Shown: positions 15,146 to 36,673 of the stretch, piece by piece
How positions within the stretch are numbered: position 1 is the first letter of the stretch
Layout: every line of letters begins with the position of its first letter
IMG/VR virus record: IMGVR_UViG_3300032093_000005
Reading direction: 5' to 3' (one strand)
Source of the DNA: a virus
Lineage: Duplodnaviria > Caudoviricetes
Length of the DNA stretch: 64,000 bases
Position numbers and translations under genes: made by a program
Notes under the pieces: model-generated
What the model saw: only the letters and a program-made list of their open reading frames with translations
Databases searched by the model: none
Told to the model about the DNA's origin: nothing

Positions 15146-15427
15146 TAGGAGCGGCGAGACTTGAACTCGCATAGCCGAAGCCGACGGATTTTCTTACCAC
15201 TACGACTTTCGCCGCCTCATAGAGTTTGTGGTCTGGACTATACCTTCACCATATCTTGTGATTTAGGTGCTCCCCGTCTAGTCTCTACACCTTCATCTTT
15301 CGATGCTTGGCTCGGTATTGCCATTTTACAGGTTTCACCGAATTTGAGGAGTTACACTCATGAGGTTTCCCAAATGAGGCTCAATTTTACATAAGTCCGT
15401 TGTGTCTACCAATTCCACCACGCTCCC
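15146..15427 (-). tRNA. trnL: tRNA-Leu(UAA), split by a group I intron (exons 15427-15393 and 15192-15146)
   Basis: Exon 1 GGGAGCGTGGTGGAATTGGTAGACACAACGGACTT + exon 2 AAAATCCGTCGGCTTCGGCTATGCGAGTTCAAGTCTCGCCGCTCCTA gives anticodon arm ACGGA-CTTAAAA-TCCGT, a long variable arm and a paired acceptor stem; no encoded CCA. Confidence 0.93.
15193..15392 (-). ncRNA. group I (IC3-like) self-splicing intron, 200 nt, no ORF
   Basis: P AAATTCGGTGAAA, Q AATACCGAGC, R GTGTAGAGACTAGACGG, S GAAGGTATAGTCC; P7 GACTA/TAGTC; terminal G; U.G at 5' splice site with TTGAG guide. Confidence 0.92.
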
Positions 15428-15470: not shown

Positions 15471-15544
15471 TGCAGGTTGTGGGGATCGAACCCACCTTAG
15501 CCGAATTATGAGTTCGGTGCTTTCAACCAGAGAGCTAAACCTGC
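15471..15544 (-). tRNA. tRNA with CAU anticodon (elongator Met or lysidine-type Ile2)
   Basis: GCAGGTT/AACCTGC acceptor, CCGAA-CTCATAA-TTCGG anticodon arm, GGTTCGATCC T-loop; lacks the initiator C1:A72 mismatch. Confidence 0.9.
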
Positions 15545-15548
15545 ACGA

Positions 15549-15620
15549 TGGGAACAGCGGGAGTTGAACCCGCGCTAAGCACTTATAAGGTGCCCGCTCT
15601 AACCATTAAGCTATGCTCCC
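15549..15620 (-). tRNA. trnI: tRNA-Ile(UAU)
   Basis: GGGAGCA/TGTTCCC acceptor, GGCAC-CTTATAA-GTGCT anticodon arm, GGTTCAACTCC T-loop. Confidence 0.88.
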
Positions 15621-33758: not shown

Positions 33759-34406
33759 TTATTTATTGGTATTTCTTGTAAAGGTTCTTCCTCTCCTCCA
33801 ACCTTGAGGTATTTCATTTTCCTTAAAAACATATCTACTTTCATTGCCATCAGTAATCCACATCATAACACTTTTCCCACTATTCCAAGATTTTTTACCA
33901 TACCTATGATTTTTTTCACCAATTTGTCTCTCACTCAATTTTCTTTTAGTTTCTTCACTCCTTTTTGATCCATAGGATGGATGATCTTTACCAAACTTAC
34001 CATACATATGATTTTTTTCACCTTTTTGGCGGTCACTAAACATTTGTAAAACATCTTTACTATGTCTATATCCGTAGGCAGGATGTTTCTCTCCTATTTT
34101 ACCATACATTGGGTTATTTTTTCCATTCAAACAATAGTAGAATTTAGTTGAAGTCTGTTTTGCTCTATTCGCAAAATGAGGATTTTTATCTACTTCATAA
34201 AAATTGTGAAGAATTATTTCTGCTTCAAGTGCTTCTTCTACACTATCAAAAGTTTCTAAAATAATCTTTTGAGATGGATTAAAGTTCTTATCGTGAAAAC
34301 TTCCAAAGTAATTTACATCTTTTTCTGGAAGACAATCACATTCTCTTTTTCCAATATAACCCCTCCCATATTCCTCATAGGAATAATACACATAAAAATG
34401 TTTCAT
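33759..34406 (-). mobile_element. free-standing GIY-YIG (Seg-like) homing endonuclease with NUMOD3-type repeats
   Basis: YVYYSYEEYGRGYIGKR N-terminus, repeated NPMYGK/HPAYG and HS.ET..KLSE motifs. Confidence 0.85.
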
Positions 34407-35619: not shown

Positions 35620-35646
35620 AAAAAAAGGAGGGGATCAACCCTCCTT
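35620..35646 (-). terminator. intrinsic terminator
   Basis: AAGGAGGG/CCCTCCTT stem followed by T-run on minus strand. Confidence 0.8.
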
Positions 35647-35650
35647 AATG

Positions 35651-35743
35651 TCATCGCATTGCCATTGCAAGTTGTGCTTTGTATTTACGATCTTCTTTTT
35701 TCTTTTGATCTTTAATAAGTTGAAGTACATTAATTTTCTTCAT
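35651..35743 (-). CDS. 30-aa basic peptide, not in ORF track
   Basis: MKKINVLQLIKDQKKKEDRKYKAQLAMAMR; start overlaps stop of upstream gene; followed by terminator. Confidence 0.55.
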   Translation of the reverse strand: MKKINVLQLIKDQKKKEDRKYKAQLAMAMR

Positions 35744-35880
35744 CACTTATGCCCCTCCTTTACAAACTTAACACCACGATAGGTTTCGTTGTATTGTTGG
35801 GGTTGCTGCATCATCTGTTGTTGATACTCAAGACGCTTTTGAGTATCATATTCAATGCCGCGATATACGACTTTAGACAT
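35743..35880 (-). CDS. DUF4278-like small protein (45 aa), not in ORF track
   Basis: MSKVVYRGIEYDT...NETYRGVKF, two YRG motifs; strong AAGGAG RBS. Confidence 0.8.
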   Translation of the reverse strand: MSKVVYRGIEYDTQKRLEYQQQMMQQPQQYNETYRGVKFVKEGHK

Positions 35881-35912
35881 TAGGTTTCTCCTTAGTTTTT
35901 TAGGTTAAAGAG

Positions 35913-35963
35913 CGTTCCTTCAGTCGGCGTTTGCGTTCGGTATTTGCGAATACCGAATGAACG
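35913..35963 (-). ncRNA. glutamine riboswitch-like aptamer (downstream copy)
   Basis: CGTTC...GAACG closing stem, ATTCGGTATT/AATACCGAA hairpin, CGCAAACGCCGACTGAAGGAACG core resembling glnA/Downstream-peptide RNAs. Confidence 0.75.
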
Positions 35964-36510
35964 ACCTACTCTTTTTCCACCTACGAATAGAAGTATGACT
36001 AGTCCCATACATTTCACCAAGTTCTCTAATAGGTATATCTAAGATAGAAGGATTTTTATCTACGTCTTCCAAGAAAACTTTATATCCACCACCCCTTCTT
36101 CTATCATTTAGATATTTTTCAGGAGTGTTGATATAAGTAGATAAATCTCTCAGTCTACCTTTAACCCAACCATTAGGTATTTGGTTTTTATGGACTAGTT
36201 TTTCTTCTATTCCATTATTCACACGAACCATACCATAGGAGCATAGACCAACTTTTGTTGACTTCACCTTATTAGCGAAGTGTTGATTCTCATCAACAGA
36301 GAAGAACTCATGGAGTTTTATTTCTGCTAAGTGTGCATCTTCTCTAGTCTCGTGGATGGATAGGATAATTTTTTCAGTTGGACTGAAAGTTTCATCCGTA
36401 TAACTCCCCATATAAAAATCCATAGAAGGTTCTACAGAAGAACCCCTAGAACCAATATATCCACGACCATAAGGTTCGTATGAGTAGTAGGTATAGAAAA
36501 ACATAGGCAT
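35920..36510 (-). mobile_element. GIY-YIG (Seg-like) homing endonuclease with C-terminal HTH
   Basis: FYTYYSYEPYGRGYIGSR, HFANK, IPNGWVKGR, IRELGEMYGTSHTSIRRW; similar N-terminus to 33759-34406. Confidence 0.82.
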
Positions 36511-36512
36511 CC

Positions 36513-36553
36513 CGTTCCGCGTCGGCTTACTTCCGTCTGTTTCCAGATGAACG
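36513..36553 (-). ncRNA. glutamine riboswitch-like aptamer (upstream copy)
   Basis: CGTTC-A-TCTGGAAACAGA-CGGAAGTA-AGCCGACGCG-GAACG; CGGAAGUA loop-E element typical of glnA RNAs. Confidence 0.78.
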
Positions 36554-36560
36554 TAAGGTC

Positions 36561-36589
36561 ATTATAGACCTTTTCAGATTATATAGCAA
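36561..36589 (-). promoter_or_regulatory. sigma70 promoter for the riboswitch leader
   Basis: TTGCTA-N17-TATAAT ending 7 nt before aptamer 1. Confidence 0.7.
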
Positions 36590-36673
36590 TATTACTGTGT
36601 ATAAAATGTTACACTTTTACAAATCTTAAGGGGGCAAAAAAATTGCCGGGATTTTTTCCCAGCATTTTGTAAA

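Follow-up and report, generated by a model that had tools for sequence, protein, structure and literature searches.

Organization of the locus

The 64-kb window analysed here (the whole stretch of DNA under study) is part of the 85-kb IMG/VR record IMGVR_UViG_3300032093_000005, which derives from a T4-like cyanophage. On its minus strand, a 196-amino-acid (aa) open reading frame (ORF), very probably a homing endonuclease gene, lies between two RNA elements that resemble glutamine aptamers, in the leader of a small gene for a DUF4278-like protein. This minus-strand region is a single compact transcription unit that extends from one terminator-like hairpin to the next, with the following features (window coordinates; SD, Shine-Dalgarno; P1 and P2, the helices of an aptamer; pLDDT, predicted local distance difference test; RF01739, the Rfam type-1 glutamine riboswitch model; R1, a covariance model described below).

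36644-36664, minus: terminator-like hairpin that closes the upstream 117-aa gene (8-bp stem, then a T run)
36561-36589, minus: predicted sigma-70-type promoter (-35 TTGCTA, 17-nt spacer, -10 TATAAT at 36566-36561; 10/12 consensus matches)
36509-36555, minus: putative glutamine aptamer 1, position-1 type (ACGGAAGUAAG...CGGAACG; RF01739, model R1, P2 covariation among alleles)
35965-36511, minus: inserted cassette, 547 nt in place of one A of the 3-nt linker G-A-U (empty junction in run X13)
35920-36510, minus: probable homing endonuclease ORF, 196 aa (ORF listing, 95 homologues, phrog_314)
36256-36510, minus: N-terminal GIY-YIG-like nuclease domain, residues 1-85 (invariant motif residues, pLDDT >90, structural match)
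35953-36108, minus: predicted C-terminal helix-turn-helix (homeodomain-like) DNA-binding domain, residues ~135-186 (structural match and conserved TSHTSIRRWKK)
35909-35965, minus: putative glutamine aptamer 2, position-2 type (ACGCAAACGCCGACUGAAGGAACG; RF01739 29.5 bits, R1 26.5 bits)
35888-35912, minus: predicted expression platform, a 7-bp hairpin of the anti-SD CUCUUUA (35912-35906) with the SD sequence UAAGGAG (35894-35888)
35743-35880, minus: putatively regulated gene for a 45-aa DUF4278-like protein (weak PF14105 match, phrog_5049)
35651-35746, minus: 31-aa Lys-rich ORF, overlapping the 45-aa gene at its stop codon (ORF listing; syntenic small ORFs in Synechococcus phage S-SRM01 and at locus L142)
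35625-35646, minus: terminator-like hairpin that closes the unit (8-bp stem, then a T run)

An earlier, sequence-only reading of the window had proposed this order of promoter, aptamer 1, ORF, aptamer 2 and DUF4278-like gene, and its coordinates proved correct to the base, with all elements on the minus strand. Transcription is predicted to start at about position 36554, one base before the P1 helix of aptamer 1, which pairs CGUUC (36553-36549, 5' strand) with GAACG (36517-36513, 3' strand). The endonuclease ATG stands 2 nt beyond this 3' strand, a second ATG of the ORF (36504) aligns with the start of marine homologues, and the last 14 codons together with the UGA stop codon (35922-35920) consist of aptamer 2 sequence. 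Aptamer 2 in turn pairs 35963-35959 with 35917-35913 in P1 and UUCGGUAU with AUACCGAA in P2, and is followed by the anti-SD/SD hairpin, with a predicted free energy of -5.9 kcal/mol and 12 of 200 shuffles equally stable. The 45-aa product of the downstream gene matches phrog_5049 (E = 1.6e-10) and, weakly, PF14105 (E = 0.0015; 19.3 bits, under the cut-off of 25.3).

The -10 box forms the loop of a palindrome, AAGGTC/GACCTT (36556-36575), and a -10 box framed in this way also lies upstream of the riboswitch in phages S-PM2 and S-H68 and at loci L009 and L012. The framed box (AAGGTC TATAAT GACCTT) is kept across distant cyanophages, in alleles that carry the endonuclease gene (filled) as well as in those without it (empty), for example at L004:1136-1155 and L006:1122-1141.

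Assignment of the RNA elements to glutamine riboswitches

Neither aptamer was detected by the default Rfam scan, which applies the gathering threshold (35 bits for RF01739). In E-value mode RF01739 matched both, aptamer 1 at 30.1 bits and aptamer 2 at 29.5 bits, each under this cut-off, with E-values for the two of 3-5e-4 locally and ~6-8e-6 in the 85-kb record (for aptamer 1, 3.3e-4 over 1.2 kb and 5.6e-6 in the record). Because circularity had to be avoided, we built the covariance model R1 from 38 aptamers taken solely from endonuclease-free phage loci. R1 matched aptamer 1 at 49.8 bits (E = 3e-13) and aptamer 2 at 26.5 bits (E = 6e-6), and in the 64-kb window it found no further match besides these two. 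Both RNA elements, taken for glutamine aptamers in the sequence-only reading, are thus matched by both models. Homologous aptamers of relatives have RF01739 scores of 35.6 bits (DSL-LC02), 33.5 bits and 33.3 bits. A preQ1 riboswitch match over the SD region (17.5 bits, E = 1.2) was treated as chance.

Within the 38-aptamer reference set, 99.7% of the P1 and P2 cells are paired, the P1 strands are invariant, and the two helices surround a conserved core, CGUUCA...ACG(G/C)AA...GGAACG. All four P2 pairs change on both sides (33 cells), a result matched by 0 of 500 shuffles. The P2 helices of the window are fully paired, compensatory P2 changes occur among filled alleles, and in aptamer 2 the P2 helix differs from that of its relatives by a compensatory swap of G-C to C-G. 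Homologous aptamers in phage S-CREM1 carry a glnA riboswitch annotation by the authors of that genome (PMC9964418), and tandem glnA RNAs are a known arrangement (Weinberg et al. 2010, PMC2864571; for tandem aptamers and the ligand pocket see also PMC6212724 and PMC11477058). Given the RF01739 and R1 scores, the S-CREM1 annotation and the known tandem glnA RNAs, we take the window elements to be divergent phage-type members of the glutamine riboswitch family, formally below its curated threshold.

The two cores differ systematically by position in the 38-aptamer alignment. Position-1 cores read …AAGUAAG(CCGAC)NCGGAACG and are without the GAAGG element, and position-2 cores read …AAA(N)GACUGAAGGAACG, a difference suggesting that the two are not equivalent sensors.

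Empty and filled alleles of the linker

Phages S-PM2 and S-CREM1 carry core 1, a GAU linker, core 2 and then a small gene, with no endonuclease gene between the cores. In IMG/VR, where counts from our four junction scans are samples and lower bounds rather than totals, at least 93 plus at least 12 unique endonuclease-free junctions were found among the matches listed. These empty forms occur in cyanophages of several genera and have a constant linker of 3-4 nt. A DNA contig from a public lake metagenome (run X13) joins position 35964 of the window to position 36512, with one base between them and a shorter arm of 60 nt. Read on the minus strand, the junction is GGAACGG-A-TCGTTCAT, as in S-PM2 and S-CREM1, and the contig is a base-exact empty form of the window's locus. 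Because this junction is exact to the base, the cassette can be defined as the 547 nt (36511-35965) that replace a single A. Other empty forms, with different P2 sequences, were present in runs X14 (DNA) and X15 (an RNA library, at a depth of 230).

The filled arrangement was found in six IMG/VR contigs, whose proteins are 82-94% identical to that of the window, and in an NCBI metagenome contig (68%). It also occurs in the isolates S-H68, S-B43, RN05-S, RB11-B and Sf-CH5 (53%), and in marine metagenome contigs from ENA and NCBI (47-50%). Altogether we count about 15 distinct filled alleles against at least 100 unique empty junctions. These data strongly support the proposal of the sequence-only reading that a selfish endonuclease gene interrupts a tandem glutamine riboswitch precisely at the linker: the allele with adjacent aptamers, for which related cyanophages were to be searched, exists in S-PM2 and S-CREM1, at 100 or more loci of uncultured phages, and as a lake counterpart of the window locus itself.

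The probable endonuclease protein

The 196-aa protein has 95 homologues and a weak match to the PHROGs family phrog_314, 'homing endonuclease' (E = 1.8e-5). In an alignment of 48 homologues the residues Y6, Y8, R16, Y18-I19-G20, Y33, E63 and N80 are invariant, and the window's copy retains every one of them. Their order follows the GIY-YIG nuclease pattern, namely GIY/YIG-type strands about 10 residues apart, an Arg, a presumptive catalytic Glu and a distal Asn; their equivalence to Y6/Y17/R27/E75/N90 of I-TevI is our own reading rather than the product of a computed alignment. Purifying selection is evident from the ratio of nonsynonymous to synonymous substitutions (dN/dS), which is 0.10-0.18 among close copies over dS values of 0.18-0.85.

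An AlphaFold model has a mean pLDDT of 83, with values above 90 for residues 1-80 and the expected strand-strand-strand-helix layout. In an exhaustive structural comparison, the I-TevI catalytic domain (1ln0_A) ranked first of 48,161 chains, with a root-mean-square deviation of 2.5 over 74 of 92 residues and a Z of 6.3, where by the tool's calibration values below 8 are not decisive; the GIY-YIG domain of UvrC (1ycz_A) also ranked high (Z 5.5). Pfam returned no nuclease family, with PF01541 unmatched at E-values up to 1, and none of the 95 homologues has a precomputed PF01541 assignment. A family-profile search of PDB sequences gave no match at E-values up to 10, and Foldseek against PDB returned nothing for the nuclease domain and only weak rows for the helix-turn-helix. 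Because Foldseek and the PDB profile search gave nothing, we regard the N-terminal domain as a probable, unproven, divergent GIY-YIG nuclease. The GIY-YIG label of the sequence-only reading accordingly finds backing in motif conservation and structural similarity and none in Pfam.

Residues ~135-193 align with homeodomains (VIA-align Z 5.0-5.6), and the TSHTSIRRWKK motif is kept in all linker-resident copies; relatives carry NUMOD3 or HTH_7. The aptamer-encoded tail, residues 187-196, is predicted to be disordered.

A second, paralogous nuclease gene of 215 aa lies in the window at 33759-34406 (minus strand), directly downstream of thyX. Its product shares the N-terminal domain (…YVYYSYEEYGRGYIG…) and carries NUMOD3-like repeats in place of the helix-turn-helix, so the phage carries two members of the family at different sites. 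Kinship of the 196-aa protein with F-CphI of S-PM2 was considered and rejected, as the tblastn match falls in the neighbouring gene S-PM2p181. This uncharacterised gene (L506:907-1536), located between F-CphI and psbD, encodes a GIY-YIG-like N-terminal domain with 57% identity over 85 residues. Since S-PM2p181 shares the domain, two distinct endonuclease genes may be present in the psbA-psbD gap of S-PM2.

Site specificity and transfer of the cassette

A profile survey of IMG/VR recovered 346 relatives. Among the best 80 of these, all full-length copies reside in the riboswitch linker (38/38), and no copy with the nuclease domain only lies near an aptamer (0/42). Relatives with other C-terminal modules occupy other classic sites, for example after nrdA. 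The split between 38/38 and 0/42 indicates that specificity tracks the helix-turn-helix module.

A 626-bp tract that differs at 7 positions (98.9% identity) is common to phages S-H68 and Sf-CH5, whose sequences on either side of it are only 25-50% identical. The tract starts 25 nt before the end of core 1, runs through the spacer and the gene, and stops 14 nt into core 2; its ends coincide with conserved aptamer segments, and its flanks hold different nested genes (see below). L235 provides the empty counterpart to the filled L138: their promoters and first cores are identical. Cassette transfer, the dN/dS values and the coexistence of filled and empty alleles in lakes form the signature of a functioning homing element, one that would presumably cleave the empty joint.

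Covariation across the joint

The four P1 strands have the same sequences in almost every allele, and pairing within a core is therefore normally indistinguishable from pairing between cores. The sole variable P1 position is the pair nearest the core. Reading its bases in the order core 1 5', core 1 3', core 2 5' and core 2 3', we found C,G,C,G in at least 91 unique endonuclease-free loci, C,C,G,G in at least about 10 and U,C,G,A in at least 2. Every variant breaks the within-core pairs and keeps Watson-Crick pairing across the cores, with the core 1 3' strand matched to the core 2 5' strand and the core 1 5' strand to the core 2 3' strand. The inner of these pairs is G-C in at least 93 junctions and C-G in at least 12. 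In equal-sized IMG/VR scans for the two one-sided joint variants with an aptamer core, there were 0 and 0 among the matches listed, and no P1 allele compensated in cis was present among the junctions examined. The trans-covarying junctions are L154, L162, L169, L199, L225, L228, L235, L246, L251 and L138-L141. Decay as the cause of the P1 changes in L138-L141 was rejected, as they are compensated in trans and also occur in endonuclease-free alleles.

Because the variable P1 pair covaries across the cores, the linker can be viewed as a terminal loop, and the endonuclease gene probably occupies the 3-4 nt loop of a helix that joins the aptamers, core 1 contributing its 3' strand and core 2 its 5' strand. 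The covariation implies an outer and an inner helix, and with them a putative strand-swapped or interlocked double sensor, so that the picture of two aptamers in series would need amending. Correction of a quasi-palindrome at the DNA level could mimic the inner covariation, though not the outer.

Start and stop of the endonuclease gene in two branches

The endonuclease start abuts core 1, with no SD site, in all six freshwater alleles and in L142 (GGAACGG-R-AUGCCUAUG). In marine copies an A/U-rich spacer of 11-18 nt separates core 1 from the gene, which has a TAA of its own directly ahead of core 2. A start next to aptamer 1 and a stop within aptamer 2 are thus freshwater-branch traits rather than features of the whole family. 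The freshwater form looks like a simple loss of the stop codon (…KKSL-stop versus …KKSRSF…), which would account for its disordered tail. Marine alleles (L135:1330-1400, L138:1985-2050) also have an additional, conserved hairpin (GGAUCCUG…CAGAGAAGG) that follows aptamer 2 and precedes the downstream gene; this gene there encodes a different small protein (MNTL…) that is not DUF4278-like.

In the contigs of RNA run X15 the endonuclease ORF has a depth of 3.4, whereas the aptamers and the DUF4278-like gene reach 100-1000; contigs of such high depth are empty alleles of relatives, and the contigs as a whole are uninformative on transcription, starts and levels. Single-sequence minimum free energy (MFE) folding of the aptamer-1/start region gave a z of 0.51 and did not recover the aptamer, a method uninformative for a small aptamer held by tertiary structure.

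Genes nested in P2 loops and neighbouring features

In many alleles a P2 loop contains a complete small gene; the aptamer concerned may be aptamer 2, aptamer 1 or, as in Sf-CH5, both. Such nested-gene alleles comprise L001:2091-2265, L003:1354-1528, L006:1775-1989, L005:951-1183 and 1775-1962, and L010:1275-1498, and at least 70 IMG/VR loci have them. All of the 70 unique long aptamer-2 alleles listed have an ATG at aptamer nt 9-16 that opens a frame of 49-69 codons. In 65 of these 70 the frame ends at the core's own stop, and conserved core bases encode a C-terminal (W)DAND or DAKAD. The predicted proteins are hydrophobic at the N-terminus and contain two Cys residues spaced about 40 positions apart. 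The tail of the window's endonuclease uses the same frame and the same stop as the aptamer-2 nested genes. The idea that L010, L011 and Sf-CH5 had lost the 5' half of aptamer 1 was rejected: an ORF of 62-67 codons occupies the P2 loop of their aptamer 1, closed by UCCUA/UAGGA or UCUCAUG/CAUGAGA.

Elsewhere, gene neighbours in the window include thyX, DUF6433 and tRNA genes, and the closest isolate is S-SRM01. At 15216-15402 (minus strand), directly downstream of two tRNA genes (15471-15544 and 15549-15620), the group I intron model RF00028 scores 58.5 bits, which exceeds its cut-off.

A model for homing into the riboswitch and its alternatives

We consider it very probable that the 196-aa ORF, a free-standing gene, encodes a site-specific homing endonuclease with a GIY-YIG and a helix-turn-helix domain, which homes to the joint between the cores of the double glutamine riboswitch heading the small DUF4278-like operon of T4-like cyanophages. 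In the scheme we propose, when a carrier and an endonuclease-free phage infect the same cell, the enzyme would cut the joint of the empty allele (the GGAACG-GAU-CGUUCAU region), and recombinational repair would copy in the 547-nt cassette, with the conserved aptamer segments at which the transferred tract ends serving as homology. The carrier genome would be immune, because the insertion destroys the target. The site may be tolerated owing to its loop position, which leaves both sensor cores and the SD-masking platform intact. The endonuclease would be transcribed from the riboswitch promoter as part of the leader and is probably translated weakly, because it has no SD site and its start abuts core 1. 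In the freshwater branch, a ribosome terminating at the core 2 UGA (35922-35920) would cover the P1 3' strand and the anti-SD (35912-35906), and could thereby transiently unmask the downstream start.

Several points weigh against this interpretation. Both aptamers score below the Rfam gathering threshold, and their binding of glutamine is a prediction. The nuclease domain escaped Pfam, the PDB profile search and Foldseek, a Z of 6.3 falls in a range where a match can mean a shared arrangement only, and nuclease activity is argued from conservation and population patterns. The cross-linker helix is deduced from one variable base pair, possibly changed in few independent events, and with 547 nt in its loop it may not form co-transcriptionally.

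Purifying selection and the population data bear on whether the gene is active, useful to the phage, or older than the tandem arrangement. A decaying, immobile relic carried along in the leader might be expected from the loss of the gene's own stop codon in the freshwater branch and from a domain that Pfam does not recognise. Yet dN/dS stays at 0.10-0.18 over dS of 0.18-0.85, the window's copy keeps all family-invariant residues, filled and empty alleles co-occur in near-identical backgrounds, and a 99%-identical cassette sits between unrelated flanks, all of which makes a relic very unlikely. The same strong purifying selection, together with a tie to one site long-lived enough that copies are 47-50% identical, would also fit a domesticated protein serving the phage, such as a regulator that binds riboswitch DNA or a nitrogen-linked nuclease, kept at its site for the expression pattern. 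Against domestication, the gene is dispensable, since most tandem riboswitch loci lack it (at least 100 unique empty junctions to about 15 distinct filled alleles), and its distribution is patchy and mosaic, as for a selfish element; we judge this explanation highly improbable. Finally, presence or absence by itself cannot give the direction of the event, and two separate single riboswitches, one of them controlling the nuclease, could in principle have become adjacent by deletion of the gene. The empty forms are, however, far commoner and more diverse, spread over several cyanophage genera with their constant linker; the cassette ends are defined to the single base, the gene is related to mobile nucleases found at unrelated sites, and the positional differences between the cores are as would be expected of one composite RNA, so that this reverse course is barely credible.

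A separate question is whether insertion between the aptamers has placed the endonuclease under metabolite control, as the sequence-only reading had suggested. Glutamine-stabilised core 1 would then occlude the start 2 nt (or 8 nt, for the second ATG) past P1, homing would follow the nitrogen status of the host, and the downstream switch would receive feedback from ribosomes that terminate in core 2. T-even phages mask endonuclease start sites by RNA structure, and hindrance of initiation by a folded core 1 at a start without an SD site would be mechanically reasonable. The abutting start in the six freshwater alleles and L142 is in line with such gating, as is the stop inside core 2, from which the anti-SD lies at most ~15 nt away, within the footprint of a terminating ribosome. 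On the other side, the marine spacer and TAA mean that coupling of start and stop to the aptamers is not conserved, the tail encoded by aptamer 2 is predicted to be disordered, local MFE folding gives no unusual stability, and the RNA library, in which the ORF has low depth, could contain DNA. We therefore hold metabolite gating to be possible but doubtful.

A wider and more speculative extension, which we think unlikely, is that the double sensor is one interlocked RNA, folding around the endonuclease gene, whose terminal loops are all landing pads for genes, the inter-core loop for the endonuclease and the P2 loops for the small Cys-pair proteins, with glutamine-dependent folding gating endonuclease translation and the terminating ribosome unmasking the DUF4278-like gene. 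If true, homing would be wired to the phage's nitrogen response, and the endonuclease would be an intron-less counterpart of the intron-encoded ones.

Relation to known systems and implications

Like the free-standing GIY-YIG homing endonucleases of T4-type phages (SegA-G) and the intron-encoded I-TevI, the window ORF appears to join an N-terminal GIY-YIG-type nuclease domain, with the I-TevI catalytic domain as best structural match, to a modular C-terminal DNA-binding domain (helix-turn-helix here, NUMOD3 in relatives), and it shares with them presence/absence polymorphism, co-transfer of short flanks and a T4-like phage host. It differs in that its homing site is a riboswitch leader rather than a protein gene, an intergenic gap or an intron site, in lying within a transcribed, structured RNA without an intron, and in a domain too divergent for PF01541. 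ORFs in the peripheral loops of group I introns likewise occupy a tolerated terminal loop or linker, with a covarying closing helix and an intact RNA core. Here, by contrast, the host RNA is a putative metabolite sensor rather than a ribozyme, and there is no splicing: the ORF stays in the mature leader, where ribosomes would compete with folding of the sensor.

With the type-1 glutamine riboswitch (RF01739), the window elements share the P1/P2 architecture, the conserved core, the tandem arrangement (PMC2864571) and what may be a downstream gene of the DUF4278/IF17 type; they differ in scoring below the cut-off, in having positionally distinct cores whose top P1 pair covaries between them, and in the 547-nt protein-coding insert that separates them. 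For the gifB leader of Synechocystis, masking of the ribosome-binding site by aptamer-adjacent sequence has been proposed (PMC6212724), and the same logic would apply here. F-CphI of S-PM2 is also a free-standing homing endonuclease of a T4-like cyanophage, but it is unrelated to the window ORF and has the catalytic motif of Endo VII ('DHHRN'; PMC6083498).

Full-text literature searches returned no description of an endonuclease in a riboswitch joint, in keeping with the sequence-only reading, which knew of no such example. What is new is the target and host structure, a riboswitch leader, in which neither an intron is involved nor a coding gene interrupted and the ORF stays in the sensor RNA. 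Homing endonucleases are known for target sites in the most highly conserved parts of protein, rRNA and tRNA genes, and a riboswitch would join this list, with an endonuclease lineage specialised on one regulatory RNA in marine and freshwater cyanophages. Phage riboswitches have been thought very rare, a 2017 census reporting only two glutamine aptamers in cyanophage genomes (PMC5473149), whereas at least 100 distinct tandem loci were found here. The locus also amounts to a natural insertion experiment, in which more than 0.5 kb is tolerated exactly at the joint of a tandem riboswitch; this tolerance, together with the covariation across the joint, argues that the two 'aptamers' may be one composite fold. 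Because both allele types exist in lake populations and among cultured phages (filled in S-H68 and S-B43, empty in S-PM2 and S-CREM1), homing, target recognition and any control by nitrogen are directly testable.

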